Shown piece after piece: positions 1,438 to 46,970 of a stretch of 50,679 nt of DNA; the first letter of the stretch is position 1, and each line of letters begins with the position of its first letter. Under the pieces are notes generated by a model. That model was not told where the DNA came from and made no database searches. It saw nothing but the letters and a program-made list of their open reading frames with translations. This stretch comes from a virus (Duplodnaviria; Caudoviricetes), in IMG/VR virus record IMGVR_UViG_3300033153_003782, positions 1 through 50,679 of that record. The stretch is one strand, 5' to 3'. The translations under genes were made by a program, and so were the position numbers.

Positions 1438-2463
1438 ATGAATGAAAAAAACCTATACAAAGACATGCACCAATCGGAGCCGTGTAGCGCTTGCGGCGGA
1501 ACGCTACGCTACACGCTAGGCGGTGCTTGCCCTTCCTGTACGCTACAGCGCCTAGCTCCTACAGTGTCTAGAGATACCCCACGCTCTAGGAGATCCGCGG
1601 AAAAGCAGGGTTTAACATGGTTTCAGTCGTCACAGCCGATAATTTGTTTCCGTGGTCCACACTTATTTGTGAAGTCCTACAAGACGTCAAAATGTGTCTA
1701 TTGTGAAGGTGACCCGAACGACCCGGCACGGGCAGCGGCGGGCAGCGACAACAAACTCGTATATAGCCCCCATTTCCCTTGTGGTGATTGCGGTACACAT
1801 TCACGCGCGGTTAATTCGAATAAGTGCATCGAATGCCATGGCTTAAAAGTGCCTAAAAATAATATAATGAAAACAAATCCCAGCATGTTAATAGCTAGGA
1901 ATGAAGCTATATCCGAAGGCCACAGCGTCTACCGTACTGGCCGCCCATGTTCGAAAGGGCATTACGGCTGGCGTAACGTGACGGGGGCGTGTATCGATTG
2001 CACGGCCGGACGACCTGCCGACGCGGAACCATGGACGGGGAAAACATTACCTGACGGTAGATTATCAGACGCTAAGAATACTATAATGCACCAGCACCCC
2101 CACGCGGTTATTAGTCTTAAGTCTGCCGTGTCAGAAGGCCACAGCGTCTACCGTACTGGCCGCCCATGTTCGAAAGGGCATTACGGCTGGCGACGGGTCG
2201 CGGGTGGAAACTGCATCAGCTGCACCGCGGGGAAACCTGCCGACGCTGAACCATGGACAGGGGACACCGCACCGGACGAAAGGGTGTCAGCCACAACAAC
2301 CTTAATGCTAGATAACCCGGACTTAGTTCTTGAACGAATAGCAGCCCAGTCGTTGGGTGTTAAAGTGTATCGAACGGGCCGACCCTGCTCGAAAGGGCAT
2401 TACGGCTGGCGACGGGTCGCTGGGTCCTCCTGTATCCAATGCGCAAAGGATAGTAGACGATGA
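1438..2463 (+). CDS. Cys/His repeat protein with ~6 putative Zn-binding modules
   Basis: Three YRTGRPCSKGHYGWR..CxxC units plus three degenerate Cys units; GAGG SD upstream. Confidence 0.75.
   Translation: MNEKNLYKDMHQSEPCSACGGTLRYTLGGACPSCTLQRLAPTVSRDTPRSRRSAEKQGLTWFQSSQPIICFRGPHLFVKSYKTSKCVYCEGDPNDPARAAAGSDNKLVYSPHFPCGDCGTHSRAVNSNKCIECHGLKVPKNNIMKTNPSMLIARNEAISEGHSVYRTGRPCSKGHYGWRNVTGACIDCTAGRPADAEPWTGKTLPDGRLSDAKNTIMHQHPHAVISLKSAVSEGHSVYRTGRPCSKGHYGWRRVAGGNCISCTAGKPADAEPWTGDTAPDERVSATTTLMLDNPDLVLERIAAQSLGVKVYRTGRPCSKGHYGWRRVAGSSCIQCAKDSRR
1915..2192 (+). repeat. 59-nt exact intragenic direct repeat (1915..1973 and 2134..2192)
   Basis: Identical GAAGGCCACAGC...TACGGCTGGCG. Confidence 0.9.
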
Positions 2464-3002
2464 AATACGCCGAATACTTAGCTTTAAAAGAAGGCCCTAA
2501 GATAAGTCTGAAGTTGGCACGGGATTTAGGCGAGACGCGGTACCGGACGGGCGCCGCGTGTTTAGAGAGGGGGCATTTAGGCTGGCGCCGCGTTAGAGAC
2601 GGCAAGTGTCTTGAATGCCTGGCCGGCTCGCCTCCACTGCCGCGCAGTGAGCACGAGTTCCAACTAATGCAGGACCGCACCGAGAAGCCCACGACAGCCA
2701 TGATGGAAAAGTACCCCGACATGGTCATCAGTCGGGACGACGCCACCGTTGTGGGTTTTATTGTGTACCGGACGGGTGAGCCATGCGGGCAGAATCACCG
2801 AGCATGGCGAAACGTACATAATAACGAATGTGTTAGCTGCCTCCGTTTGGATCCGCCGGGGCCCGACGAACGGGTAATAAGCAAGTCGGTAGCATTAGAC
2901 CGCCAGTTCCCTATGTATCGGACGGGCGAGCCATGCGAGAAGGGGCACACCGGCTGGCGCTACGTTGAAAACGATCAATGCGAAGAGTGTTCCCGAGCCT
3001 GA
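2460..3002 (+). CDS. Paralogous Cys/His repeat protein with 3 modules
   Basis: YRTG.xC..xH..WR.V....CxxC three times; ATGA overlap with upstream gene. Confidence 0.75.
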   Translation: MKYAEYLALKEGPKISLKLARDLGETRYRTGAACLERGHLGWRRVRDGKCLECLAGSPPLPRSEHEFQLMQDRTEKPTTAMMEKYPDMVISRDDATVVGFIVYRTGEPCGQNHRAWRNVHNNECVSCLRLDPPGPDERVISKSVALDRQFPMYRTGEPCEKGHTGWRYVENDQCEECSRA

Positions 3003-3040
3003 CACCCGGCCGTCCCTCGCGGGTCGGCCCGTTCGGTTGG

Positions 3041-3193
3041 TTACTGGTGCGCTTGGATAATCTCGTTTATGTCTTTACTTAGCTTCGCCATAAGCTCGCG
3101 GCGCATGTTGAGGTAAAAGTCGAGCATGTCGTGGCCGAAGTGGCTTGGGTCTTCGATCGTGGTGATTAGTTTGTTTAGCTCGTAGATATTCAT
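3041..3193 (-). CDS. 50-aa hypothetical protein (not in ORF track)
   Basis: MNIYELNKLI...IIQAHQ; AAGGAG SD; directly follows repeated promoter cassette. Confidence 0.75.
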   Translation of the reverse strand: MNIYELNKLITTIEDPSHFGHDMLDFYLNMRRELMAKLSKDINEIIQAHQ

Positions 3194-3322
3194 TGTCGGG
3201 CTCCTTGTGGCTTAATTGCCGTGTTGCTTATGTAGAGACAATACTACGGCCCAGCCGTATAGCAAGCGACTTTTAAACATTTCCCCACAAATAAAAAAGC
3301 CACCCCGTAAAGGGCGGCCGTT
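3190..3322 (-). repeat. Terminator-promoter-RBS cassette, copy 1
   Basis: Differs from 3519..3650 at about three positions; -35 TTGCTA, palindrome 3245..3259, -10 TATTGT. Confidence 0.9.
3291..3319 (-). terminator. Intrinsic terminator (similar copies at ~3619..3648 and ~4589..4617)
   Basis: GCCGCCC-loop-GGGTGGC stem followed by TTTTTTATT on the minus strand. Confidence 0.8.
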
Positions 3323-3336
3323 GAGGTCCGTTACTA

Positions 3337-3522
3337 CTAGGCAAAGTGTGCGTCGAATACTTCGCCGATCTCTTTAGTATCAGTAATAACGGCGTGGAAC
3401 TTTTTAAGCTCCTGGCTCATAGAGAAAAAATCAAGGACGTCGAAATAGTTTCTATTAGCTTCTAAGTAGTCTTTGATTTTTGCAAGGCGGATATTCTTGT
3501 TTGTTGCTTGGCGAGTAGTCAT
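3337..3522 (-). CDS. Hypothetical protein, 61 aa
   Basis: Exactly fills the space between two cassettes; AAGGAG SD. Confidence 0.8.
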   Translation of the reverse strand: MTTRQATNKNIRLAKIKDYLEANRNYFDVLDFFSMSQELKKFHAVITDTKEIGEVFDAHFA

Positions 3523-3650
3523 TGTCGGGCTCCTTGTGGCTTAATTGCCGTGTTGCTTATGTAGAGACAATACTACGGCCCAGCCGTATAGCAAGCGACT
3601 TTTAAACATTTCTCACAAATAAAAAAGCCGCCCCGTAAAGGGCGGCCGTT
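3519..3650 (-). repeat. Terminator-promoter-RBS cassette, copy 2
   Basis: Near-identical to copy 1; palindrome 3574..3588. Confidence 0.9.
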
Positions 3651-3654
3651 CTGA

Positions 3655-4272
3655 CTATTTCCGCACCGGCATTATACATGCCTTTTTATTTGGCCCCTCA
3701 AACACTACCGGCGTTTTGTACCCATCCACCGGCGCGACCTTGACGTCCCAGTCCTCGAGCGGCCCCAGGTCTAGTATAAAGCGCTTGTCGAAATGTATGT
3801 CCCCGGTGTCGAATTTAAAGCACGCGTGGAACTGGTCGAACTCGACCGGAACGTCCGACACTCGGAACTTGTCGAAGCTGGCTGTGTTAGGGATTACCGT
3901 TTTATAGTTCGGGTAGTACATTTCAGTTTCTACGCGCTTGCCTGTCTTAGGGCAGATAAAGCAGTCCTCAATATACGCGGCGCCCGTCTCGATATGTACG
4001 CGGCGCCCGTCGGTCGCGACTGTCTGCTGTGCCTCGGCATCGTTGAAAATATAGTTGAGTACTAGCCGGGCGTCGTCCTTGGATACTGCCGAGGCCACAA
4101 AGTCGCGCTTTGTATGCTTCGCGAATGCCGCGGCGATACTGTTTAACGCGTTGCACGCTTCGACGTCCTCGGCTGGTACGTGCTGCGCGAGTTTCTCGAT
4201 CGCCGCGAGCATGTCGGCGCGCTTAGTTGGCTTGTAGTTACCGCGGGCAATATTTGTGTAGTCGATATTCAT
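3655..4272 (-). CDS. Truncated DNA polymerase III beta-clamp-like protein
   Basis: SKDDAR..LN, VATDGRR, YPNYKTVIP and C-terminal IMPVR resemble DnaN motifs. Confidence 0.65.
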   Translation of the reverse strand: MNIDYTNIARGNYKPTKRADMLAAIEKLAQHVPAEDVEACNALNSIAAAFAKHTKRDFVASAVSKDDARLVLNYIFNDAEAQQTVATDGRRVHIETGAAYIEDCFICPKTGKRVETEMYYPNYKTVIPNTASFDKFRVSDVPVEFDQFHACFKFDTGDIHFDKRFILDLGPLEDWDVKVAPVDGYKTPVVFEGPNKKACIMPVRK

Positions 4273-4311
4273 CTGGTATGGTCCTTGGCCCTCTCGGGCC
4301 GTTGTTGGCTG

Positions 4312-4491
4312 TTATTTAAAAGAGGTGACAGAGAAAAAATTGTCTGTACGAACGATGAAAGTTTGACTACCACAAGCGAAGGAAAAGACCTTTTGACCTT
4401 TTTTGTCGATCCCTACGAAAGCGCAATATTCCTTATGTGCGGCTTCATCTAGTCCGAGGTAAGTTTCTAGTGCGGCTTCAGTATTTCTCAT
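4312..4491 (-). CDS. 59-aa hypothetical protein (not in ORF track)
   Basis: MRNTEAALET...SVTSFK; GGAG SD; follows cassette 3. Confidence 0.7.
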   Translation of the reverse strand: MRNTEAALETYLGLDEAAHKEYCAFVGIDKKGQKVFSFACGSQTFIVRTDNFFSVTSFK

Positions 4492-4494
4492 AAT

Positions 4495-4620
4495 AAGTTC
4501 TCCGTTGTGGCTTAATTGCCGGTTGCTTATGTAGAGACAATACTACGGCTGGGCCGTATAGCAAGCGCCCCCGCAAAGAAATATCACAAATAAAAAAGCC
4601 ACCCCGTAAAGGGCGGCGTT
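4495..4620 (-). repeat. Terminator-promoter-RBS cassette, copy 3 (diverged)
   Basis: Shares TTGTGGCTTAATTGCC, palindrome 4544..4558 and the terminator. Confidence 0.85.
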
Positions 4621-4706
4621 TATTGGTCGGGTCGTGCGGTGGGTTAGAGCACGTTATCACCTATGGGGCTGTATTCTCTTGCGTCTCTATCGGCATTAGT
4701 GACTTT

Positions 4707-6332: not shown

Positions 6333-6359
6333 GTGTAAAGCTCCGTTTAGTTATGCCCT

Positions 6360-6388
6360 ATGATACTACGGCCGGGCCGTACCGTCAA
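6360..6388 (-). promoter_or_regulatory. Class I promoter TTGACG-N17-TATCAT with operator-like palindrome 6367..6381
   Basis: Near-consensus sigma70 boxes; recurrent motif. Confidence 0.85.
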
Positions 6389-7054: not shown

Positions 7055-7165
7055 CGTAAACGCTCCGTTATCATGTCGATTAAACCCTGCCTCTCGGTAC
7101 TGCGCAACGTTACGCCCCGGACCGTAGCGGTGTAGAACGTCGGGCCCGGGTGTATGGCGTGGCCT

Positions 7166-7486
7166 TTATACGTCACGTTTGCCTGCCGTGGTTATCCGTT
7201 CTAGTTCGGTGTCGAAGTAGACCGTGCCCCGGGACAAAGCGCCGTTTTTAAACTTAACTATGTTACCCCCGTTTATAACGTAAAAGACCGCCGGGTCCGT
7301 CTGGAATAGATTAAGGACTTTAACGTTGTTATTCCGTTGCGTCTGCGCCACCATCTTGGCCTCCCGTACTAGGTCGTCAACCTGGAAGGTCTTAACCTCC
7401 GCCGTGTTCTTGTACCCGGAGCGGGAGTTAATGGCCGCCACAAGGAAACAAAGTAGTGACACGCACGCCATCTCTACGGGGTCCAC
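7166..7486 (-). CDS. Hypothetical protein with N-terminal hydrophobic segment
   Basis: MACVSLLCFLVAAI membrane anchor. Confidence 0.6.
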   Translation of the reverse strand: MDPVEMACVSLLCFLVAAINSRSGYKNTAEVKTFQVDDLVREAKMVAQTQRNNNVKVLNLFQTDPAVFYVINGGNIVKFKNGALSRGTVYFDTELERITTAGKRDV

Positions 7487-7680
7487 TATTTACCCCCAGC
7501 GTGGGCGGATACGGCCCGCCAGTTACGCTGCACGGCCAGCCCCGCGCGGTCAATGTCGCGGCGCCCCTGCTCGTAGTCCTGCAGAGTACGGACCGAGACG
7601 GCCAGCTTATCTGCAAATTCTGTTTGTGTTAATCCAAGGGCGCGGCGAACCGTGCCCACATTTAGCGGTTGTTTTTTCAT
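7486..7680 (-). CDS. XRE-family helix-turn-helix protein
   Basis: VRRALGLTQTEFADKLAVSVRTLQDYEQGRR. Confidence 0.85.
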   Translation of the reverse strand: MKKQPLNVGTVRRALGLTQTEFADKLAVSVRTLQDYEQGRRDIDRAGLAVQRNWRAVSAHAGGK

Positions 7681-8414: not shown

Positions 8415-8458
8415 AATAAGTTTTCCTTGTGGCTTAATTGCCGGTTGCTTATGTAGGT

Positions 8459-8487
8459 ATAATACTACGGCCCGGCCGTACCGTCAA
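8459..8487 (-). promoter_or_regulatory. Class I promoter TTGACG-N17-TATTAT, palindrome 8466..8480
   Basis: Recurrent motif; leader shared with cassettes 1-3. Confidence 0.85.
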
Positions 8488-8505
8488 GCCCTATGGCAAA
8501 GTTTT

Positions 8506-8994: not shown

Positions 8995-9023
8995 ATGATA
9001 CTACGGCCGAGCCGTACCGTCAA
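8995..9023 (-). promoter_or_regulatory. Class I promoter TTGACG-N17-TATCAT, palindrome 9002..9016
   Basis: Nearly identical to the 6336..6392 segment. Confidence 0.85.
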
Positions 9024-10259: not shown

Positions 10260-10288
10260 ATAGTACTACGGCCGAGCCGTACCGTCAA
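10260..10288 (-). promoter_or_regulatory. Class I promoter TTGACG-N17-TACTAT, palindrome 10267..10281
   Basis: Recurrent motif. Confidence 0.85.
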
Positions 10289-11155: not shown

Positions 11156-13474
11156 TTATTTAACCGGGGCCGGCAGCCCTTGCGCCGTCTCGTATATTTC
11201 CACCACCTCGCCACCGTCCAGCCCTTCGCGGGCGTCTTTGTGGTTACTCTTAATGAATAGCCGGGACTTGCCGCCGTCCATCGGGACAACCCGCGTAGAC
11301 CGGCCGGCGCGTAACGACGGGTGAGGCACGTACCCCATTAATTTCAACATGTCGCCTCTTTTGTTTAGTGGTACCTTCCGCTCGGCGCGTATTTCTTTGA
11401 GAAAATTGCCCAACTGGATACTTGATATCCACCCGTTACGGAAGCCAGGGCGGCCTTCCGCTATGGCCTCGCCTATCTCATGCTCGACCATTCCCGCGCT
11501 TGAGCGTATCGCCTCGGTCGTACTGGACGTCATCGGCGCGCGCTGGCATAACCTGGCGGGGTTCATTTCCGGCGGTATCGGTAGAGTATACAAATACTCC
11601 GCGACGAATGCGTGGCCGCCGTCAATGTTAAGCCAGTTATGTAGCTCGTCGAAGTACTCCGCCGTCATACCATCGCGGGCCAGGTCTTCGAATTCCTGCT
11701 GCGCTGTGTAGAACATAGCAAACCGGCGGTCATTCTTATTTTTTCTTATCGCGTCTTTGTGGTTACTGTTGAAAATGAAGTTACAGCATATCTGAACGGT
11801 CCGCGGGTCTTTGCCCTTCGGTTGGATCGCGGCGTAGGCCTCGGTTATCTTAGGTTTTAAGGATTCTATTAAATCCACCTTACCCGCGGCGTTTATGTCC
11901 TCCACAGGAATAAAAATATTCCCCGCAAGCCATGAGTTAAATTTATTATCCATGTCACCCGGGTCCACAAAATGGACGTACGGCATACCGACGGCTTGAG
12001 CCACACAAGTGGATAGAATCGACTTCCCGTTACCCTCTACCCCTTGGACGAGTGGCGCCCATTTAAATTTATAACCTTTGTGCTGGACAATTGCCGCCAT
12101 GTACGCGGTAAGCTGTTGGCGGTCGCGGGTGTTCGGTAAAAGCTTCTTAAGGTGATTAGTAAACGGCGTAACGTCCCCGACCCTGCGGTCCACGGGTAAC
12201 TCGCGGTAAGTGTTTACCAGTTTAGACCCTAGAAGGGTGATAACCTCGCCGGGTTCCGTATCGGGTCGGAAGCATGTTGACGCCACTTTCGAAAACTTAA
12301 CGGCCCGTGACTCGGTGAACACCTCAAAAGCTTTTGTTGTGGTCTTCTCGCTCTGCGCGTCCATGCTATAAATTCGGCCCCCATACGTCGCGTTAAATCT
12401 CGCGCTGTCCAGCTTCGACCCGTACGGCGTGAGGATGACGTTATCATCTTGGACGTAATGGTATCCTTTGAAAAGTCCCACCTGCTCAGGCGCTAGACAA
12501 TACATATCCGTCTTTGGCTCGTCACTGGCTGCCGGCTGGGCTGGCTTGGCTCGGTGCGTCTGGCTGTAGACGTTATCCTGCTTGTTTACGGCCTGCGTTA
12601 TCGTCCTTGTTAAGTAGCTCCCGTGGCTTTCCCACTTATCCCGGTTTAGCGCACTCTTAAGCATTATTTCGCGCATTCTTTCGTGGTTTTTACCAGTCCA
12701 GAAAGCGAGGCGCTGCGCGAGTGAAGCGTCGGCGCTCGATGCGTCGTAGGCTCTCGACCCGTAAACGTCCGGCCAGGCCTTGGATAGTGCGTCCTCGTCA
12801 CATTCGAATAAATCTTTGAACGTCACGCCCGTTCCGAATATGGACGCCGCGGACGACGTAGCACGGCAAGCGCGGGCTATTAAATCGTCGTCATCTTCCG
12901 GGCCGCTCCAATCCTCGACCGGCTCGTCGCGCCATTCCTCGGCTTCTGCGTACTCTGCAGGAGGAAAGTATTTTGTGGCCACTGAGGCCATAGCGGCGGA
13001 GTTTTCGATACTGGCGTCACCGACTGCCGAGCTGCCCGTCAAAGCGCAGTAACGGCCCTCGGTGTAGTACTCAATGCCAAGGGGTATATTTTTGCAACTG
13101 TGCGGAACGTGAGCGGCTTTTCCGATTATGTGTAGCCCCGTACCGCTTTGCGATACTTCAACGGCCGCGCCGGTTAGTGTCTGGCATAGCTCGTTAGCTA
13201 CTGGAGACCATTGGCCGGCGTTAAGTGCTTTGTCTATGTCCACAAAATAAAAGGGGTCGTGCGGGGTGAATACGAAGCCGACACCATGGCCAGTAGCTTC
13301 GGACGCTTGCAGCGCTTCGGCTGCTGGCATCCATGTCGAGGGGTTCTGGCCGTCTGAGTTGCGGCCCGTGGCGGGGTCGACGGGCATTTTATCCGTGCGG
13401 CGCCAGGTTATAAACTGTTTATATTCGGTGAGCGCGGCGAGTGGTCCGCCAGGCTGTAGTGCGGTTTTTAACAT
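11156..13474 (-). CDS. NrS-1-like primase-polymerase fused to SF3 (DUF5906/D5-like) helicase
   Basis: FVDID, EVSQSGTGLHII, EYY..GRYCALTG, DASSAD..L...LAFWTG helical bundle; Walker A GVEGNGKS; DRRF. Confidence 0.85.
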   Translation of the reverse strand: MLKTALQPGGPLAALTEYKQFITWRRTDKMPVDPATGRNSDGQNPSTWMPAAEALQASEATGHGVGFVFTPHDPFYFVDIDKALNAGQWSPVANELCQTLTGAAVEVSQSGTGLHIIGKAAHVPHSCKNIPLGIEYYTEGRYCALTGSSAVGDASIENSAAMASVATKYFPPAEYAEAEEWRDEPVEDWSGPEDDDDLIARACRATSSAASIFGTGVTFKDLFECDEDALSKAWPDVYGSRAYDASSADASLAQRLAFWTGKNHERMREIMLKSALNRDKWESHGSYLTRTITQAVNKQDNVYSQTHRAKPAQPAASDEPKTDMYCLAPEQVGLFKGYHYVQDDNVILTPYGSKLDSARFNATYGGRIYSMDAQSEKTTTKAFEVFTESRAVKFSKVASTCFRPDTEPGEVITLLGSKLVNTYRELPVDRRVGDVTPFTNHLKKLLPNTRDRQQLTAYMAAIVQHKGYKFKWAPLVQGVEGNGKSILSTCVAQAVGMPYVHFVDPGDMDNKFNSWLAGNIFIPVEDINAAGKVDLIESLKPKITEAYAAIQPKGKDPRTVQICCNFIFNSNHKDAIRKNKNDRRFAMFYTAQQEFEDLARDGMTAEYFDELHNWLNIDGGHAFVAEYLYTLPIPPEMNPARLCQRAPMTSSTTEAIRSSAGMVEHEIGEAIAEGRPGFRNGWISSIQLGNFLKEIRAERKVPLNKRGDMLKLMGYVPHPSLRAGRSTRVVPMDGGKSRLFIKSNHKDAREGLDGGEVVEIYETAQGLPAPVK

Positions 13475-13811: not shown

Positions 13812-14103
13812 CCAGGGCCGCCCGTAAGGTGTCGTGCAGGTTACTGCCCGCGTGGATTGAATTGTGTTCGTTGCTTTCCAAGTACTCCACGGCCTTGGCT
13901 ACCGCTTCCGCGCACGCCCTGAAAACTGGTTCGATATTATATATTTTCATTATTGGCGCGGGGTCATGGTCGAACGGGACCGCGTCGGCCACTACTGCGT
14001 CCTTCGCACGGGCGCAGTAGTAAAACTCACCCTCTAGCGGCTCGCGGAACTCTCCAGTATATTTAAAGCCTGGGACTATTGGCATATCCATTTTAATTTT
14101 CAT
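13804..14103 (-). CDS. Hypothetical protein
   Basis: ATGA coupling; TGEFREP..GEFY motif. Confidence 0.65.
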   Translation of the reverse strand: MKIKMDMPIVPGFKYTGEFREPLEGEFYYCARAKDAVVADAVPFDHDPAPIMKIYNIEPVFRACAEAVAKAVEYLESNEHNSIHAGSNLHDTLRAALDE

Positions 14104-14459
14104 GCCGGCCACACAATAGCTATGGCCTCGCCGATCGCGTCGAATTGGTTTACATGCATATGCTCTGGGCTCCCGTTCGTGTACTTTCTAAAAAGGTCAT
14201 CGTCTAAATACTCTAACACATACCGGGTCTGGCCGATGCGGCACGGATACCACACATTCTGTACAAAGTGCCGGACGGGCTTTCCGTCACGTTCTATTAG
14301 AGTAAACGCCCTTATGAGGTCCTCGATACTCGAGGTCTCAACGGCTAACTCTCCGTCGTCGAGAAACCAGTACGCGACGCGGCCGCCATGGACCCTAGCA
14401 ACGTTTAAATCCACTCCCTTATGCGACCAAACATCACCCGCTTTTACTGTCTCTGACAT
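14100..14459 (-). CDS. Hypothetical protein, tandem paralogue A (start MSETVKAGDVW)
   Basis: AAGGAG SD; 5' region identical to paralogue B. Confidence 0.75.
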   Translation of the reverse strand: MSETVKAGDVWSHKGVDLNVARVHGGRVAYWFLDDGELAVETSSIEDLIRAFTLIERDGKPVRHFVQNVWYPCRIGQTRYVLEYLDDDLFRKYTNGSPEHMHVNQFDAIGEAIAIVWPA

Positions 14460-14461
14460 AA

Positions 14462-14881
14462 TTAAATCTCCTTTTTTGTTACGGTGCATGCCGGCCACTG
14501 TACGCGTAGCGGCTCGCCGACGACTAGGCTCTCCAGCGCGTATGTTCCTAGCTCGCACTCAGAGCTTTTATATTGTAACAGCATAAATCTCTTAAGGCAT
14601 TTTTTATACATACCCACGTCTTTAGGTCGTTGGCCGGTGTTTAGCTTAACGCGGACGGCGTAGTAAACCCCGTCCTCAAATTCGCGGACGGGCTGGCCGT
14701 CGCGTTCTATGAGCGTGTACCTATGTGCGAAGGCCTCGGGGGCCATGTCCCCACAGAGCATAAGGCCCGTGTCAGTCAACCCCCAATATCCGACGAGGCC
14801 GCCGCTAACCTTAACAACGTTTTTTCTCGGCTCTTCGGGGATAATCGCCCAAACGTCGCCCACTTTTACTGTCTCTGACAT
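14462..14881 (-). CDS. Hypothetical protein, tandem paralogue B
   Basis: MSETVKVGDVW...TLIERDGQPVR...WPA. Confidence 0.75.
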   Translation of the reverse strand: MSETVKVGDVWAIIPEEPRKNVVKVSGGLVGYWGLTDTGLMLCGDMAPEAFAHRYTLIERDGQPVREFEDGVYYAVRVKLNTGQRPKDVGMYKKCLKRFMLLQYKSSECELGTYALESLVVGEPLRVQWPACTVTKKEI

Positions 14882-14907
14882 AATTAAATCTCCTTTTGTT
14901 GTGGTCT

Positions 14908-14935
14908 ATACTAGCACCGTTGACGGTAGCGTCAA
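14908..14935 (-). promoter_or_regulatory. Class II promoter TTGACG-N16-TAGTAT with palindrome ACCGT-CA-ACGGT
   Basis: Spacer TACCGTCAACGGTGC identical to that at 17400..17414. Confidence 0.7.
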
Positions 14936-15399
14936 GCCCCGCCGGTCGTAAAATTTGCGTCCCCGCCCAAACTGGACACCATTGTGAGAAAAGCCAGTTG
15001 CGCGACTTCCCGCTTCGTCCCAGCATATTTCCAGTCGCCGCGCTTTACTTCCCGCGCGACAAATTGGCCAATCGTCCGTCCCGTATGCTCCGGACCTATG
15101 AGCACAGGTTTAATGCCTATGAGGTCCGAGGACTTAAGCCGGCTATTCATCTGCGACGAGTCGTTAGCGAGCCCATAGCGCAGGAACGCGCCGTCCTTGG
15201 TGTATGTCGCGCCCACGTTATTACGCCACAGCCTCGAGCCGGCTTGGCTGGCTTGCAGTCGCACTTGTGTTTGGACCGCGGCCTCGCTCGCGCCGGGCAT
15301 CGCTGCCGCTTCCGGGTGTGCCATTCCTATCTGCTGCGCCAGGTCTTGTATCGCGGCGTTTGGTATGTTGTGGCGTATCGCCCAGTCGTGTAAATTCAT
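14932..15399 (-). CDS. VRR-NUC domain nuclease
   Basis: SEAAVQ, RLWRNNVG, SSDLIG, AREVK, Q..FL motifs. Confidence 0.85.
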   Translation of the reverse strand: MNLHDWAIRHNIPNAAIQDLAQQIGMAHPEAAAMPGASEAAVQTQVRLQASQAGSRLWRNNVGATYTKDGAFLRYGLANDSSQMNSRLKSSDLIGIKPVLIGPEHTGRTIGQFVAREVKRGDWKYAGTKREVAQLAFLTMVSSLGGDANFTTGGA

Positions 15400-15682: not shown

Positions 15683-15711
15683 ATAATACTACGGCTAGGC
15701 CGTACCGTCAA
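15683..15711 (-). promoter_or_regulatory. Class I promoter TTGACG-N17-TATTAT, palindrome 15690..15704
   Basis: Recurrent motif. Confidence 0.85.
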
Positions 15712-15724
15712 GTCCTTTTTAAAT

Positions 15725-17374
15725 TTATTTCCATGTGTGACTCTCCATTTTTTGCTGTAGTGTTTCGGCGTCTTTCGTTCCGAGCGCCTGGGCGCTCATT
15801 ACGTCTACACCGTAATTGAAATAAAATCTCCTGTAGCTTTCCGAGTCGGTCCGCCCCTGCTCGCGCTGGAAGCCGCCCCATAACGATATAACGTGCCGTA
15901 ACGCCGCTTGAGCTCCCTTATGCGCGGCGTGGCGTTTGACTCCGGCCAGTTGCCCCACAAGTGGCACCCGGCGCGCTACGAGCCGCGCGCGGTAGTCTTC
16001 GTTGTCCATGTCCACAGATTCAACAGCGGCGCGCATGGCGGCGAGGGTCTCGGCGTCCAGTTCGTGGAGATCGCCGTCGACAAATTCCGCCGAGCTACGC
16101 GCCACGGGGACCATAACGAAGCCGCAGTATGGACATGCTTTGTGGACTTTCTCATAAACCCCGGTACAGCTCGGGCATGATCGCACCGGGATTACATCGT
16201 CGGGCGTTCCGCTGCTGCGCTTTTCCCTGCGGTCGAGGGACCACTCGCGGGGCGCGTCTGGTAATCCGTGGCGTATCACGTTATTAACATGATCGATAAT
16301 TAAAGCGTGTATTTTTCCTTTCATGATGCGTAGCGCACGACCAAACTGCTGGACGTAAAGCCCATAGCTGGCCGTCGGTCTTGCCATGATAACAACCTCA
16401 ATAGCTGGAAGGTCGAAGCCTTCGCCGAATAGGTCCACATTCACAAGCATCATAACTTGTCGTGCCTTAAAGCGGCGTAGCACTTCGGCGCGGATAGCCG
16501 GCTTGGTCTTGGCGCTCACAACTTCGGAACGAATGCCCGCCGCGTTGAACTGCGCACTTATATCCGTGGCTGTCTCCACGTCCGTGGCGAACGTTACGCC
16601 CAGTTTGCCGGGTGCTATTTTCTGATAGTGTTTAACTACGTCCCCGGTTATCTGCGAGGACCGCACGGCCTTTCGTACGCCGTCTTTGTTATAGTCCCCG
16701 GTCGCCTTGGACATTTTAACGTCGGATAGGTCGAGGTCGGAAGGTGGCGCAAAAATTCGATACTCCGCGAGGAACTCCCGGTCGATAAGTCCGCGCATAC
16801 TCGGCCCCTCGACCATGTCGTCGAATACCCCGTCCGCGTGTCGCCCAAGCCCTTTACCATCTGCGCGTAACGGTGTGGCCGTAACGCCTAGGCCGCGAGC
16901 GTTCGGGAATAACTGCACGGCTTTACCCCATTTGTTGCCGGGGTACGGCTGGGCCGTAATATGATGTGCCTCATCGATCACCCACAAAGAAACACTAGCC
17001 AGCCAGTCGCCCAGCTCGTCGACGCGGCGGACTATCGTATCGACACCGGCCACGGCGACCCGAGACGCCGGCTCATACCATGACCGGCCCGTCTCGGCTA
17101 TGTGCTGTGAAACTATAAATTTTATTATATTGTTTGGAGCTATTAAACGGTGTCGCACGCCGTTAACGGCTAGGGCTAAAGATATCTGACTTACAAGCTC
17201 TTGCCTGTGGGCTATAACCGCCGCCGAGCCGGTATTCTCCTTTATTATATTGGATAAGAGCACGGTCTTACCCGCGCCCGTCGGCATAACTGCCAAGACG
17301 TTACGCGAACCCGCCGCCCAAGACGCGAGTATATCGTTTTTGACTGATATTTGGTAATCTCTAAGTTTCATCAA
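15725..17374 (-). CDS. Superfamily 2 DEAH helicase with Zn finger
   Basis: MPTGAGKT, DEAHH, TATP, EGFDLP, QQFGRALR; CPSC..CPYC. Confidence 0.92.
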   Translation of the reverse strand: MMKLRDYQISVKNDILASWAAGSRNVLAVMPTGAGKTVLLSNIIKENTGSAAVIAHRQELVSQISLALAVNGVRHRLIAPNNIIKFIVSQHIAETGRSWYEPASRVAVAGVDTIVRRVDELGDWLASVSLWVIDEAHHITAQPYPGNKWGKAVQLFPNARGLGVTATPLRADGKGLGRHADGVFDDMVEGPSMRGLIDREFLAEYRIFAPPSDLDLSDVKMSKATGDYNKDGVRKAVRSSQITGDVVKHYQKIAPGKLGVTFATDVETATDISAQFNAAGIRSEVVSAKTKPAIRAEVLRRFKARQVMMLVNVDLFGEGFDLPAIEVVIMARPTASYGLYVQQFGRALRIMKGKIHALIIDHVNNVIRHGLPDAPREWSLDRREKRSSGTPDDVIPVRSCPSCTGVYEKVHKACPYCGFVMVPVARSSAEFVDGDLHELDAETLAAMRAAVESVDMDNEDYRARLVARRVPLVGQLAGVKRHAAHKGAQAALRHVISLWGGFQREQGRTDSESYRRFYFNYGVDVMSAQALGTKDAETLQQKMESHTWK

Positions 17375-17392
17375 ATTTCCTGTTGTTATGCC

Positions 17393-17420
17393 TTGACCGT
17401 ACCGTCAACGGTGCTAATGT
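17393..17420 (+). promoter_or_regulatory. Class II promoter TTGACC-N16-TAATGT (extended -10) for the rightward replication operon
   Basis: Same spacer palindrome as 14908..14935. Confidence 0.7.
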
Positions 17421-17454
17421 CAACCATAACAACAACGAAAAAGGAAGGAAAAAT

Positions 17455-18378
17455 ATGTCAGAATCAATATCCCTCACAATTCCCGCAACGCCGTTAGCGT
17501 GCTCCATCTTCGGCGCCGCAATCGACGCTTACGGTAAATCACTGGTCGCAGCGATGCCCCCGGCACCTGCGCCACAGCCAGTGGCTATCGCCGACCTACC
17601 AACTGAGGCGGAGATTTTCGGTAATGCCCCCATGGGCGTACCTTACACCGACGCCCCGGAAGAAGTAACGGTAAATAAAGGCGCCTCTGTCGGTAAGCCT
17701 GCAGTCCGAGAAATGACCCTAGAAGACATTAACAGCGGCGTTGAGCAGACTATTAACGGCCATGGTCAAATAGTACTAGACGACGAGCCAATAGTCGTTA
17801 ACCTACCGGGAGTCGTTCACAATGTGGATATCACCATCGACGAAAAAGTGGTACTCCCTTCCGTAGTATTGAACCCCATCGCCCCGCCGATAGCCTCCCC
17901 GCTGGTACTGGTTGGCCCTGGCACCATCGTGCCGGAACTCGACAGCGCGGGCTTTCCGTGGGACGAGCGTATCCATGCCACAACAAAAACAAAAATGAAG
18001 GACTTAACTTGGAAAAAAGCCCGCGGCGTTGACCCGGCTCTAGTCGACCAGGTACGGGCAGAAACTAAAGACGTTCCTTTCGCCCCGGGCTCAACCCTCA
18101 CCCCACCGCCCGTTATGCCCCCGGAAGTTGCGGCCCAACTCACCCCCGTAGCCCCACCGGTCGCGACGTCGCCGGCACTTGACAGCGCGCTAACGTTCCC
18201 CGGTCTTATGACGGGCATCACTGGCGCGGTAAAGTCTGGCCGTTGCACTCAAGCAGCTATCGACGCGGTCGTGGCGCATGTTTGCGAGACGCTAGAAATC
18301 GATAGCATTGTGGTCTTATGCCAACGCCCCGAACTGCTCGACGCGGCGTACTCAATGATTAAGCCGGCTATAAGCTAG
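17455..18378 (+). CDS. Pro/Val-rich conserved phage protein (start reassigned to MSESIS)
   Basis: AAGGAAGG SD; DSAGFPWDERIH...WKKARGV motif. Confidence 0.75.
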   Translation: MSESISLTIPATPLACSIFGAAIDAYGKSLVAAMPPAPAPQPVAIADLPTEAEIFGNAPMGVPYTDAPEEVTVNKGASVGKPAVREMTLEDINSGVEQTINGHGQIVLDDEPIVVNLPGVVHNVDITIDEKVVLPSVVLNPIAPPIASPLVLVGPGTIVPELDSAGFPWDERIHATTKTKMKDLTWKKARGVDPALVDQVRAETKDVPFAPGSTLTPPPVMPPEVAAQLTPVAPPVATSPALDSALTFPGLMTGITGAVKSGRCTQAAIDAVVAHVCETLEIDSIVVLCQRPELLDAAYSMIKPAIS

Positions 18379-19541
18379 TGGACCACTCGCCAATAGCGCC
18401 AAGCTCCGCCAGTGTGTGGGGCAAGCCGGGCGGCTGCACGGGCTCTGTGTCCATGCAGCAACGCTACCCCGAGGACGAGGCTATAGGCCCCGCCGCGGAA
18501 GGTACGGCGGCGCATGAGATCGCCGACCAGCTATGCGTACCCGCGAACCCCACCGAAAAAGTAAGCTTTAAGTACTTTGCGGGTCGAGCTGCCAGTAACG
18601 GCGTAATGTTCACGGAGGAAATGTTCGACGCGGCGGTGGTGCACTTTGACTCTGTGCGTGCCTTAGTTGCTTCCGATACGGCCCCCGTGGCCGGCTCGGA
18701 GACCCCGCTTAAAATGGCGAGCATTCACCCGCTAGCATACGGAACTTGTGACGCTTGGGTATATTTACCGGAAACAAAAACGCTATACATAATAGATTTT
18801 AAGTATGGCTACGGCATTGTCGAGGTTTTCGAAAATTACCAGTTGTTACTATATGTTGCGGGCGTTCTGCACGAACTCGAGAACCGTGTCGGCCGGATCG
18901 CTGGCCCGCGTGGGTCTCTTAAGATAGTAATGCGGATAGTTCAACCTCGTGCATATCATGAGGACGGGCCGGTCCGCGATTGGGAAATCGACGCGGTCGA
19001 CTTGTTGCCCTACTTCGAGACGCTAAAACGCAACGCACATATAGCATTGTCAGACGCGGCGAGTGTCGTATCGGGTGAGCACTGCGAATATTGCAGCGGT
19101 CGCCATGCATGTAAAGCGGCGCAACGTGCAGCACTCTCTTGTGTGGACTATGTCGGAAAGCCTACCCCGTTGGAGTTAGACGGCGACGCCTTGGGCTCGG
19201 AGTATGCTTTAATGAAGCGGGCCGAGTCGGCCATAAAAAACCGTTTGTCTGGACTTGAGGCGCAAGCCGAGGGACTACTGAGAAGCGGCGAAACGGTCCG
19301 CGGCTTATCGCTAGGACCGGGCCGAGGCTCGACTAAGTGGACACATGAAAAAGACGAACTTTTCGCCCTTGGCGATATGCTAGGCACGGACTTAAGGAAG
19401 CCGGCCGCAACGATCACACCAACACAAGCAAAAGACGCCGGCATGGACGCCGCGCTAGTAGCAGCTTATTCGGAAAAAATACCGGGTAAACTTAAAGTAA
19501 AAATCGATAATATAAACAAAGCAAAAAGGATATTCGGATAA
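18378..19541 (+). CDS. DUF2800 / Cas4-like PD-(D/E)XK exonuclease
   Basis: PSSA..W...C.GS, EGTAAHE, GTCD, IIDFKYG.G, QL..Y, IVQPR, G.HC.YC....C. Confidence 0.88.
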   Translation: MDHSPIAPSSASVWGKPGGCTGSVSMQQRYPEDEAIGPAAEGTAAHEIADQLCVPANPTEKVSFKYFAGRAASNGVMFTEEMFDAAVVHFDSVRALVASDTAPVAGSETPLKMASIHPLAYGTCDAWVYLPETKTLYIIDFKYGYGIVEVFENYQLLLYVAGVLHELENRVGRIAGPRGSLKIVMRIVQPRAYHEDGPVRDWEIDAVDLLPYFETLKRNAHIALSDAASVVSGEHCEYCSGRHACKAAQRAALSCVDYVGKPTPLELDGDALGSEYALMKRAESAIKNRLSGLEAQAEGLLRSGETVRGLSLGPGRGSTKWTHEKDELFALGDMLGTDLRKPAATITPTQAKDAGMDAALVAAYSEKIPGKLKVKIDNINKAKRIFG

Positions 19542-20059
19542 TGATACTCACGGGGCTTAAAACCCAATACCTAAAAACACTGACGATCACTTCAGAGGCC
19601 GAAGCTCTTGAAGCTGTGAAGCGTAACGGCTATTCTCTTCGCTACGTCAAGGAACAGACCGAGGCCGAAGCTCTTGAAGCTGTGAAGCGTAACGGCTATT
19701 CTCTTCAGTACGTCAAGGAACAGACCGAGGCTGTCTGTCTTGAAGCTGTGAAGCGTAACGGCGATTCTCTTCAGTACGTCAAGGAACAGACCGAGGCTGT
19801 CTGTCTTGAAGCTGTGAAGGAAGACGGCGATTCTCTTCAGTACGTCAAGGAACAGACCGAGGCTGTCTGTCTTGAAGCTGTGAAGGAAGACGGCGATTCT
19901 CTTCGCTACGTCAAGGAACAGACCGAGGCTGTCTGTCTTGAAGCTGTGAAGCGTAACGGCGATTCTCTTCGCTACGTCAAGGAACAGACCGAGGCTGTCT
20001 GTCTTGAAGCTGTGAAGCGTAACGGCGATTCTCTTCGCTACGTCAAGATTTTTAAATAA
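19541..20059 (+). CDS. DUF4116-type tandem repeat protein
   Basis: Seven 22-aa EAVK.nG.SL.YVKEQTE.vCL units. Confidence 0.8.
   Translation: MILTGLKTQYLKTLTITSEAEALEAVKRNGYSLRYVKEQTEAEALEAVKRNGYSLQYVKEQTEAVCLEAVKRNGDSLQYVKEQTEAVCLEAVKEDGDSLQYVKEQTEAVCLEAVKEDGDSLRYVKEQTEAVCLEAVKRNGDSLRYVKEQTEAVCLEAVKRNGDSLRYVKIFK
19595..20047 (+). repeat. 66-nt tandem repeat, ~6.9 copies
   Basis: Units start at 19595, 19661, 19727, 19793, 19859, 19925 and 19991. Confidence 0.95.
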
Positions 20060-20080
20060 CACAAACAAAGGAAAAAGATA

Positions 20081-21013
20081 ATGGATAGAAATTTTTTAAC
20101 TCCAGTAGGCAGACTCGTAGCAGGTAACGTATTTACACCAAACACAACGGACAACCAAGGCAAGCCACTACTAATTAAAAGTGGCCCGAATATCGGCCAG
20201 CCGACGCAAGATTTTTTTATTGCCCTTGCCATTCCTAAAAACGATCCGGGTTGGCCTGCACTCGAGGCGCAGATAAAAGCCATTGGCGTGGCGGACTTCC
20301 CCGGCGGCGAAACTGCGCGCCCGGATTTCGCATGGAAAATCGACGACGGCGACAGCACTGTACTAAATAAGGCTAACAAAAAGAATTGTGATAAACAAGG
20401 ATACCCGGGCCACTGGGTTATACGCTTCGGCGGCTCGTTCGCTCCGCAGGTGTACAGCACGGGCGCTACTGAGCTATTGACCGACCCCGAGCGCATTAAA
20501 CGCGGTTATTATATCCGGGTGTACGGTTCGTGTAAAGGTAATAGCAATCCGCAGATGCCGAGCGTGTACCTGAACCCAAGTATGGTCGAGTTTATCGGAT
20601 ACGGCGAAGAGTTAACAAGCGGCCCGGACGGCGCGGCCATTTTCGGCGGCGCACCAGTCGCAGCGCTACCCGCCGGAGCAAGTGCTACGCCATTGGCACC
20701 AGCTACACCATTGGCCGCGCCGGTCGCAGCCGCGCCGGTCGCAGCCGCGCCGGTCGCAGCCGCGCCGGTCGCAGCCGCGCCGAACCCTCCAGCGGTCGCA
20801 CCGGTCGCAGCCGCACCGGTCGGACCCCCAGCTACGACGATGCCCGCGCCGGATTTCCTCGCGCCGCCAGTCGCGCCAGTCGCGCCAGTCGCGGTAGTTG
20901 CCCCGGTTGACCCCGAGTATATGCACAACGGTGTTGTGGTTAAACAGTCTCAGCTCATAGGCTGGACGCCTGAGCAGATAGCGACGCTCACGCCCGTAGA
21001 AATACCGTTCTAA
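20081..21013 (+). CDS. ssDNA-binding protein (DUF2815-like) with long Ala/Pro linker
   Basis: TPVGRL, KIDDGD, GYPGHW, GYY.RV, VYLN motifs; C-terminal EIPF; located between DUF2800 and the polymerase. Confidence 0.75.
   Translation: MDRNFLTPVGRLVAGNVFTPNTTDNQGKPLLIKSGPNIGQPTQDFFIALAIPKNDPGWPALEAQIKAIGVADFPGGETARPDFAWKIDDGDSTVLNKANKKNCDKQGYPGHWVIRFGGSFAPQVYSTGATELLTDPERIKRGYYIRVYGSCKGNSNPQMPSVYLNPSMVEFIGYGEELTSGPDGAAIFGGAPVAALPAGASATPLAPATPLAAPVAAAPVAAAPVAAAPVAAAPNPPAVAPVAAAPVGPPATTMPAPDFLAPPVAPVAPVAVVAPVDPEYMHNGVVVKQSQLIGWTPEQIATLTPVEIPF
20714..20782 (+). repeat. 15-nt tandem repeat GCCGCGCCGGTCGCA (AAPVA), ~4.6 copies
   Basis: Seen directly. Confidence 0.9.
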
Positions 21014-46739: not shown

Positions 46740-46768
46740 TTGGCAGTACGGCGGGGCCGTAGTATCAT
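46740..46768 (+). promoter_or_regulatory. Class I promoter TTGGCA-N17-TATCAT, palindrome 46747..46761
   Basis: Same leader AGGGCATAACTAAACGGAG as the copies at 6360 and 8995, on the opposite strand. Confidence 0.8.
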
Positions 46769-46796
46769 AGGGCATAACTAAACGGAGAAAGGCACA

Positions 46797-46955
46797 ATGA
46801 AAGAACGTAAATATGACTTAGTAACAACTTGGAGAGGGTCCAATAAAGAGACTCTGCTAACTGCGAGCCCTATGTCGCACCCGAAATGCTGCACCATGAA
46901 GTCTAAATTTACTCCACACAAAAACCAAGTTATAATGCTCCGCGAGTCGCTCTAG
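46797..46955 (+). CDS. 52-aa moron-like protein (not in ORF track)
   Basis: GGAG SD, own promoter, MKERKYDLV...LRESL. Confidence 0.7.
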   Translation: MKERKYDLVTTWRGSNKETLLTASPMSHPKCCTMKSKFTPHKNQVIMLRESL

Positions 46956-46970
46956 AACCCACACCGGGCG

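Follow-up and report, generated by a model that had tools for sequence, protein, structure and literature searches.

In T4-type phages, ORFan genes are flanked by promoter-early stem-loop (PeSL) cassettes, in which strong sigma-70-like promoters are joined to terminator stem-loops (Arbiol et al. 2010, PMC2839356; Comeau et al. 2014, PMC4122927). Here we analyse a terminator-promoter-leader module of about 130 nt, with a palindrome in its promoter, that occurs three times in one small-gene region of a phage genome. The window, by which we mean the whole stretch of DNA analysed, is the full IMG/VR virus record IMGVR_UViG_3300033153_003782 (50,679 bp), a 50.7-kb myovirus-like phage genome, and all positions given below are those of the window.

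Integrons are another described arrangement of gene units and repeated elements: an IntI-type tyrosine recombinase is encoded beside an array of promoterless cassettes with attC sites, which are expressed from a common promoter, Pc. Two described kinds of inverted repeat resemble the palindrome. In Vibrio cholerae, the HigA2 antitoxin dimer binds one inverted repeat, TGTACGC(N)5GCGTACA, which starts after the -35 hexamer and extends over the -10 hexamer, and the N-terminal region of HigA2 neutralises the toxin and raises operator affinity (PMC11006873). The 17-bp dyad repeats of Cluster O mycobacteriophages are stated in most cases to lie away from promoters and to play no part in indels, and the part of the report that describes them proposes no protein as their binder (PMC4351075).

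The module is most likely a gene switch in the first place, as judged from its make-up and from its counterparts in other genomes, and it probably also serves as a place where genes are swapped. The reading towards which we lean, and which we hold to be rather probable, is an early regulon whose promoters would be tagged with one operator and controlled by one phage helix-turn-helix (HTH) repressor, with three terminator copies insulating four genes and a PeSL-like recombination layer added.

The ten-member promoter family and its candidate reader

The original prediction treated the module as a local array, but its promoter core proved to be spread over the genome. A 19-mer of the core, searched with up to 3 mismatches, gave 10 sites (16 matches, six of the sites being read on both strands) compared to 0.58 expected and at most 3 in 100 shuffles. 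An 18-mer with no more than 1 mismatch was found at 10 places in the record, compared to 0 for the reversed control pattern. Eight of the sites face leftward (3241, 3570, 4540, 6363, 8462, 8998, 10263, and 15686) and two face rightward (16944 and 46747).

With the copies anchored on the palindrome, the arms TACGGC-N3-GCCGTA were invariant in all ten sites while the central triplet took eight forms. The palindrome always lies one base upstream of a -10-like hexamer, and nine of the ten sites have a recognisable -35 hexamer, which places the palindrome inside the 16- or 17-nt spacer. The -35 hexamer is TTGACG in five copies, TTGCTA in three and TTGGCA in one, and none is convincing at 16944. Two types of leader account for most of the family: type A at 3241, 3570, 4540, and 8462, and type B at 6363, 8998, 10263, and 46747, with 15686 and 16944 having leaders of their own. 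The B-type copies match the sigma-70 consensus at 9-10 of 12 positions with a 17-nt spacer, compared to 8 of 12 with a 16-nt spacer for the A-type copies. Invariant arms around a free centre, held at a fixed place between the -35 and -10 hexamers, are typical of a site bound by a dimeric protein; simple common descent would not give such a pattern. The palindrome is upstream of the transcription start and so would act as DNA.

Two other roles were considered and rejected. A promoter for a phage-encoded RNA polymerase was discarded because no open reading frame (ORF) resembles such an enzyme; all ORFs of at least 650 amino acids (aa) encode primase, DNA polymerase, tail/baseplate, terminase or phrog_4671 proteins. 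A restriction- or nuclease-type site was dropped as no evidence supports it.

Our candidate for the operator's reader is the one clear HTH protein of the early region, a 64-aa Xre/HigA2/NadS-like protein encoded at 7486..7680 on the minus strand by the fourth gene behind the promoter at 8462. It matches Pfam HTH_3 at 6e-8, above the cutoff, and two further families below the cutoff, MqsA_antitoxin (0.0055) and NCBIfam NadS (6.8e-5). Over residues 8-42 it is 63-70% identical to antitoxin-type HTHs, and the antitoxin of those loci matches HigA-2 structures at 5.6e-11. The phage protein begins at the HTH domain and lacks the toxin-neutralising N-terminal region (the antitoxins are 93-104 aa long), and PHROGs and Pfam gave no RelE-type match for the 124-aa ORF upstream of its gene. 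As a 64-aa protein with neither a partner toxin nor that N-terminus, it would be only the DNA-binding half of a toxin-antitoxin module and not such a module itself.

Loci homologous to the HTH were fetched by protein similarity alone. The query, four aligned HTHs, matched 286 stretches, of which 88 could be confirmed; the analysis used the best 80 of these (161,672 nt). In these 80 loci the palindrome TACGGC-N3-GCCGTA occurred 13 times exactly and 5 times with one mismatch, compared to about 0.01 expected by chance, while none of five control palindromes of comparable make-up occurred at all, either exactly or with one mismatch. It tracks the recognition-helix motif VSVRTLQDWEQGR, being present in 17 of the 20 loci with the motif and in 1 of the 60 others, where it was a one-mismatch site downstream of the gene. 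Among five whole records checked (4-75 kb), four had it exactly once, at the HTH locus. In the homologous loci the palindrome lies in the spacer of a good promoter, with its right arm overlapping the -10 hexamer (GCCG-TATAAT), and this promoter precedes a RelE-like toxin gene followed by a gene for a 93-aa, HigA-2-like HTH antitoxin. The same promoter and the same pair, annotated as toxin and antitoxin, are present in Pseudomonas phage Shamal. The palindrome also has the core TACG-N7-CGTA and its place in the promoter in common with the V. cholerae HigA2 operator as reported (PMC11006873). Because it accompanies one HTH family at single-copy, autoregulated promoters elsewhere, its behaviour is that of an operator and not of a recombination site. 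On this comparative evidence, HigA2/NadS-like Xre HTH proteins have this palindrome as their type of operator.

Searched for exactly in IMG/VR, the 19-mer core was matched once in each of 16 loci, about the number expected by chance for 16 specified bases, and only one of these loci, L022, was informative. When the 16 loci were searched by tblastn with 44 window proteins, the single match was an HTH protein in L022 (record G001). It is also 64 aa long and aligns with the window HTH at a blastp E value of 9e-7 (40% identity over 35 aa), and its gene starts 9 nt downstream of the matched 19-mer and 13 nt downstream of the 15-bp palindrome. The complete 38.8-kb virus G001, which is unrelated to the window, has terminal repeats. 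It contains the palindrome exactly twice, the copies being 79 nt apart in the intergenic region directly upstream of the HTH gene. No toxin gene was found beside this gene in the 619 nt examined; the HTH stands alone. Within L022 98-400 the ATG of the HTH gene is only 7 nt past the -10-like hexamer, and the mRNA may be leaderless.

Two low-GC contigs of one metagenome, unrelated to the window (L032:1488-1676 and L033:1851-2039), have a promoter-leader repeat of about 90 nt in common that is followed by different genes. The repeat has TTGACA, a 17-nt spacer with TACGGC-N3-GCCGTA inside it, and TATAAT, and it was found with a pattern that demanded these bases. That metagenome scan, with 20 specified bases, gave 3 loci, none of them similar to the window by blastn, where 1-2 chance matches were expected, and the two contigs were not used as evidence. 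They may represent another operator-tagged promoter family.

Outside the three modules, five further operators lie on the minus strand. The operator at 6367..6381 belongs to a promoter with TTGACG, a 17-nt spacer, TATCAT, and a B-type leader; that at 8466..8480 lies in a chimeric promoter, with the upstream element and -35 hexamer of type B and the leader of type A, which heads the operon with the HTH gene. Those at 9002..9016 and 10267..10281 are in B-type promoters, the latter with TACTAT as its -10 hexamer, and that at 15690..15704 is in the first promoter of the leftward early region. On the plus strand, the copy at 16944..16958 has perfect arms, lies within the helicase ORF and faces the rightward replication genes, which begin at 17383; with a -10 hexamer of TATGAT and a poor -35 hexamer, it may be the promoter through which the replication block is controlled, or just a binding site by itself. 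The B-type promoter of a lone 52-aa ORF (46797-46955), which lies between the minus-strand portal and large-terminase genes, contains the second plus-strand operator (46747..46761). Within 46740-46985, this ORF is followed by a GC-rich hairpin without a U-run, and the promoter, leader, and ORF together resemble an inserted self-expressed unit of the moron kind.

A second family of promoter-like repeats forms an inverted pair at 14896-14936 (minus strand) and 17392-17432 (plus strand), 41 nt long and 83% alike. Its -35 hexamer TTGACG lies within a different palindrome, TTGACG-N4-CGTCAA, followed by TAGTAT or TAATGT. These repeats may form a separate, perhaps middle, promoter class with an operator of its own.

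The three modules, their cargo and the mosaic copies

The modules lie on the minus strand at 3190-3322, 3519-3650, and 4492-4620, and each consists of a terminator, promoter, leader, Shine-Dalgarno (SD) sequence, and ATG. Sequence comparison thus bore out the original prediction of a ~132-nt module of this make-up, with a palindrome in its promoter, at 3190, 3519 and, diverged, at 4495. In copy 1 (3190..3322) the hairpin at 3319-3298 with its U-run is followed by the -35 hexamer TTGCTA (3265-3260), the operator (3259-3245), the -10 hexamer TATTGT (3243-3238), AAGGAG (3206-3201), and the ATG (3193-3191). Copy 2 (3519..3650) has its hairpin at 3647-3626, its operator at 3588-3574, a promoter and leader like those of copy 1, and its ATG at 3522-3520. 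Copy 3 (4492..4620) has its hairpin at 4617-4598, its operator at 4558-4544, an A-type leader, and an SD tail of the 8462 type. It departs from copies 1 and 2 in about 20 nt between the terminator and the -35 hexamer and in this tail, the last 16 nt before the ATG.

The promoter of all three modules is TTGCTA, a 16-nt spacer, and TATTGT, and the leader is about 45 nt long, with AAGGAG or GGAG preceding the ATG. Each terminator is an 8-9-bp GC-rich hairpin followed by a U-run (-15 to -19 kcal/mol, z -2.1 to -3.7), and only 0-5 of 200 shuffles folded equally well. Leftward transcription from the upstream promoters encounters its first strong terminator at the hairpin 4617-4598. The terminator half is confined to three of the ten promoter copies, there being no comparable hairpin upstream of the other seven. 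A structured RNA element in the leader was also considered and rejected as the leader folds no better than shuffles (z about 0), and no Rfam family reached its gathering score anywhere in the window.

Copies 1 and 2 are identical over runs of 94 nt (3190-3283 and 3519-3612) and 20 nt (3303-3322 and 3631-3650), and the stretch between the runs differs by 2 substitutions and one 1-nt indel. The 150-nt flanks on either side are only 25-36% identical without gaps. The identity ends one base past the start codon (ATGA), where the original prediction had placed its end, and the other border follows the stop codon of the gene before it by 4-14 nt. The two copies are also alike where the other A-type copies differ, at 92% compared to 56% in the upstream element and 100% compared to 56% in the SD tail. 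Identity at positions that are free to vary points to a recent duplication or conversion, and not to constraint.

The first two units each hold a single minus-strand gene, for a 50-aa protein (3041..3193) and a 61-aa protein (3337..3522). The third holds two, for a 59-aa protein (4312..4491, GC 0.40) and a 205-aa protein (3655..4272), so that the predicted "single-gene cassettes" describe units 1 and 2 only. No PHROGs or Pfam family matched the 50-, 61- or 59-aa products, and a word-based search of 5.8 billion proteins with the 61-aa protein returned only that protein itself. The cargo genes had further been called unrelated. At the DNA level no similarity is detectable between the coding parts of units 1 and 2, but their 50- and 61-aa products are weakly similar near the C-termini (blastp E 9e-4, a score reached by 5 of 5000 shuffles). 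The first genes behind the A-type leaders rank 2, 4, 5, and 13 lowest in GC among 76 ORFs.

The 205-aa protein belongs to a family of proteins of about 200 aa with 71 representatives at E <= 0.001, and two of its relatives are 82-84% identical to it. Four of 49 aligned members match the DnaN central domain. AlphaFold, given these 49 sequences, returned a model with a predicted local distance difference test (pLDDT) score of 87.6; a model from a 3-sequence alignment was unusable (pLDDT 40). Foldseek placed bacterial beta sliding clamps at every listed rank with a probability of 1.0 and a template modelling (TM) score of about 0.5 on the query. According to this model, the protein has a DnaN beta-sliding-clamp-like fold and is a clamp-like protein. 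It is the only characterised cargo, and no cargo gene matched a known anti-defence function, which leaves the suggestion of possible anti-defence cargo unsupported.

Further traces of exchange come from the copies with mixed ancestry. The copy at 8415-8495 has the upstream element and the TTGACG -35 hexamer of the 6363/8998 family and the leader of the 3241 family, and comparison of the copies confirmed that it is a chimera, as had been proposed. The upstream elements of an A-type and a B-type copy are alike in two pairs, 4540 with 6363 (76%) and 8462 with 8998 (84%), and thus cross the leader families. Since all four combinations of upstream type and leader type exist, and the segments are several bases long, exchange within the shared core is required. 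Compared copy by copy, the mosaic segments around this core show a record of past recombination. The proposal of a crossover at the palindrome stands as far as the segments on either side of the promoter core are incongruent; as a dedicated crossover site, on the other hand, the palindrome is better explained as the operator of the HTH protein.

Relatives with other gene content were sought in several ways. A scan of IMG/VR with a 17-mer of the A-type leader gave 7 loci, none related to the window, and no related loci were found via the 205-aa cargo protein. The primase led to 6 loci with 28-42% identity, which are too distant for a comparison of cassettes; in 4 of these 6 loci, which were scanned, there was no promoter-like repeat family.

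A closer relative was present in run X1, one sediment run whose Logan contigs were matched at 80% likeness. It is represented by low-depth fragments at 90-97% identity, and the parts of the window that these do not cover are uninformative. The 61-aa gene has a counterpart of about 97% identity in one contig of this run. One contig follows a module up to 3624 and then continues in unlike sequence instead of the terminator, which at this low depth and 80% likeness is a hint only. Loose ends at 6344 and 6388 belong to the homolog of the 46747 promoter, a site beyond the stretch compared with this run. One joint runs from 7140 to 7484 with 33 other letters between; with a side of 44 letters and a match below 95% likeness it too is a hint only, and the 106-aa gene at 7166-7486, beside the HTH gene, may be replaced in the relative. 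Another joint, from 14448 to 14869, coincides with a 52-nt direct repeat (14424-14475 and 14846-14897, 92% alike) as if the relative were single-copy there; its shorter side is 22 letters, and it may be a split alignment. The SD sequence and initial codons of two paralogs, the genes at 14100-14558 and 14462-14881 (35% aa identity), lie within this repeat.

Proposed mechanism and rival explanations

In the regulon that we propose, all ten host-type, sigma-70-like promoters would fire upon infection. The 64-aa HTH protein would accumulate, bind as a dimer over the spacer, and block RNA polymerase. It would thereby shut off the whole promoter set, its own operon included, giving an early burst followed by negative feedback. 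The terminators upstream of the three most distal promoters would shield the last four genes (encoding the 59-, 205-, 61-, and 50-aa proteins) from read-through, and since these strong terminators are directly upstream of the promoters, the four genes would be expressed only from their own operator-controlled promoters.

The shared core of about 35 nt and the full modules of 130 nt would at the same time be dispersed homologies that act as recombination points. Recombination at the modules would explain the near-identical copies 1 and 2 beside dissimilar genes, the chimeric copies, and the lone unit among the late genes. The exchange would go by general homologous or annealing recombination and not by a site-specific system. 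Two proteins of the phage are counted for this part of the proposal: a Gp2.5-like single-stranded DNA-binding and annealing protein (phrog_7011, 20081..21013, plus strand) and an exonuclease (phrog_69, 18378..19541, plus strand) that is a possible partner in annealing-type recombination between the repeats.

Several observations weigh against parts of this proposal. Transcription starts, termination, timing, and DNA binding are all inferred from sequence. The A-type promoters, with only 8 of 12 consensus positions, are absent from the list of a simple promoter scan, and the 16944 copy lies inside a coding region without a convincing -35 hexamer. The direct match of the window HTH to the solved HigA-2 is weak (E 0.083). 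The window HTH reads ...QDYEQGRR, with Y where the palindrome-positive loci have W, and the three fetched loci with Y (L059, L063, and L067) have no palindrome within 1 kb. Nine of the 17 palindrome-positive loci belong to one lineage (L045-L053, with four central triplets), so the association rests on about 7 independent lineages. For the recombination layer, no close relative was seen in which the same modules enclose other cargo, and only three of the ten promoters carry the terminator half of the module. Finally, the 50- and 61-aa ORFs may be diverged paralogs, which would fit local duplication and gene conversion, and not the import of foreign cassettes.

The last point leads to an explanation without any cassette movement, namely that the repeats are purely regulatory, kept alike by selection on the operator, polymerase contacts, and leader, and that one 329-nt tandem duplication took place, after which the coding parts diverged and gene conversion acted. 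Units 1 and 2 are indeed adjacent and of similar size, and the weak C-terminal similarity of their products is as expected of duplicates. The most similar upstream elements are at neighbouring promoters (3241 with 3570, and 8462 with 8998), and the 61-aa ORF had no relative elsewhere in the word-based search. On the other hand, the coding parts have no detectable DNA similarity beside 94 identical nt, and this demands a gene conversion both very recent and sharply delimited, exactly by the ATG on one side and the terminator foot on the other. Nor does a local event account for the upstream element that the 4540 and 6363 copies have in common across 1.8 kb and across leader families, or for the lone unit 37 kb away on the other strand, and the low GC of the first genes behind the A-type leaders suggests an origin elsewhere. 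We therefore regard this explanation as unlikely, though it is the alternative to be taken most seriously.

Two others seem much less probable. In one, which corresponds to the original prediction, the locus is an integron-like system dedicated to plugging in genes, and crossover takes place at the palindrome when single-gene, possibly anti-defence, cassettes are captured or excised. The array layout of three units with borders at gene ends would fit, as would the junctions of the chimeric copies within the palindrome-bearing promoter core, and the PeSL authors themselves liken PeSL-ORFan units to integrons and detected mini-circles, according to the pertinent part of their report (PMC2839356). 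However, no integrase, recombinase or transposase family was found among the ORFs scanned (25 + 28 + 23 ORF queries against PHROGs and Pfam), each unit has its own promoter, unlike promoterless integron cassettes, and in other genomes the palindrome is found together with a single HTH family, at autoregulated promoters where it is present in single copy. With two genes in the third unit and no match of any cargo to a known anti-defence function, we consider this the most improbable of the readings. In the other, the operator would be read mainly by an antitoxin of the HigBA2 type from the host or a prophage, whose level would set the early firing of the phage, and the phage HTH would be a competitor or mimic. 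The same palindrome is an operator of toxin-antitoxin promoters in proviruses and phages, and the phage HTH (64 compared to 93-104 aa) lacks the N-terminal region that neutralises the toxin and raises affinity in V. cholerae HigA2, as described in PMC11006873. Against it, the phage's own HTH, of the right family and inside the regulon, suffices, and G001 has a stand-alone 64-aa HTH with two operators of its own and no toxin gene in the stretch examined. This reading is, in our view, very improbable.

It could be speculated that the regulon under the phage's own HTH has a wider history. A phage in which no lysogeny gene was detected would have acquired the half of a HigA2-type antitoxin that binds DNA and would have distributed the corresponding operator over all ten of its host-type promoters. 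Resident toxin-antitoxin modules of the HigBA2 type, in hosts or prophages, and such phages on entry would read each other's promoters, and the cassettes would be portable units for plugging in early genes. We think this bold extension improbable. If true, an infecting phage could be silenced by a host antitoxin, a form of transcriptional immunity, or the antitoxin could be titrated by the ten operators on phage DNA as it replicates, which would trip the toxin. The reuse of an antitoxin-type DNA-binding domain as a global phage regulator would in any case raise the question of cross-talk between phages and toxin-antitoxin modules via a common operator. A search of the literature found no virulent-phage early regulon run by an antitoxin-type HTH, which does not prove that none is in print.

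Genome context and comparison with known systems

The phage has a myovirus-type structural module on the minus strand at 23.3-50.6 kb, with PHROG matches to sheath, tape measure, baseplate, major head, portal, and large terminase proteins. PHROG matches also identify a rightward replication block at 17.4-23.4 kb (exonuclease, Gp2.5-like protein, and DNA polymerase) and, on the minus strand, a helicase (15725-17374) and a primase (11156-13474). The early region runs on the minus strand from about 15.7 kb to 3.0 kb and is densely filled with small ORFs, the majority without a family match. The primase shares 47-50% identity with its counterparts in named phages, among them Shewanella phage SppYZU01 and Klebsiella phage JD001, and a blastn search with 3000-4700 found no DNA-level match in GenBank phages.

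Three features of the genome stand apart from the modules. At 1438-3002, two paralogous plus-strand genes (341 and 180 aa), made of internal repeats of about 219 nt (phrog_1081, no known function), are convergent with the cassette array. Seven tandem 66-nt repeats at 19529-20122, in the middle of the replication block, lie inside the ORF 19541-20059, which has five DUF4116 repeats (Pfam 5.5e-37). The 101-aa ORF at 49384-49689 matches the N-terminal domain of dATP/dGTP diphosphohydrolases (PF18909, 5e-19), a family that in other phages goes with the replacement of a canonical base.

As with the PeSLs of T4-type phages, small ORFans are separated by a composite element in which a terminator stem-loop is joined to a sigma-70-like promoter, here a predicted and presumably early one, in what may be a variable region; the copies are sufficiently alike to recombine, and chimeric ones exist, as read here from one genome. 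The PeSL analogy in the original prediction thus holds for the composite terminator-promoter architecture in three of the ten copies and for the small ORFan cargo. The phage differs in its size of about 50 kb (160-250 kb for T4-type phages) and in having the terminator half at only three of ten promoters. Its module also includes a conserved leader with an SD sequence up to the ATG and an invariant operator in the spacer, neither of which is mentioned in the passages that describe PeSLs (PMC2839356, PMC4122927). The core evidence for PeSLs, in those passages, consists of mini-circles and of indels between relatives that end in the cassettes, while the likeness here rests on the architecture of one genome. 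The gene-shuffling side, if true, would extend PeSL-type modular exchange beyond T4-type phages.

The array resembles an integron in being a set of small gene units, each bounded by a repeated element. It differs in that no integrase, attC-type site or common Pc was found and in that the units are self-promoted and self-terminated; the term "integron-like" is therefore not appropriate, as the scanned ORFs include no integrase or recombinase and nothing resembles attC. The Cluster O dyad repeats are similar as sites: they too are invariant inverted repeats with a variable 3-bp centre, many per genome, for which a dimeric binder is predicted in the section concerned (PMC4351075). In contrast, every site in the present phage keeps a fixed place immediately before a -10-like hexamer, and there is a candidate for the binding protein.

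The closest counterpart of the regulatory half is V. cholerae HigA2 with its higBA2 operator. Both proteins are Xre-type HTHs linked by intermediate homologs, and both operators have the TACG-N7-CGTA inverted repeat between the -35 and -10 hexamers; the HigA2 dimer represses over the promoter according to the account in PMC11006873, and the same mode is predicted for the phage HTH. The phage protein, at 64 aa, differs in having neither the disordered toxin-binding N-terminus nor a partner toxin, and its operator is found at ten phage promoters instead of at one autoregulated operon. Compared to the toxin-antitoxin promoters, the operator in the window lies wholly in the spacer, 3 nt further upstream. 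From these likenesses of protein and operator, the regulatory half of the module is, as best we can judge, a toxin-less offshoot of a HigA2-type antitoxin/operator pair. What is new here is that sequence alone sufficed to name a candidate reader of the palindrome and to link it to a transcription factor with a solved operator complex.

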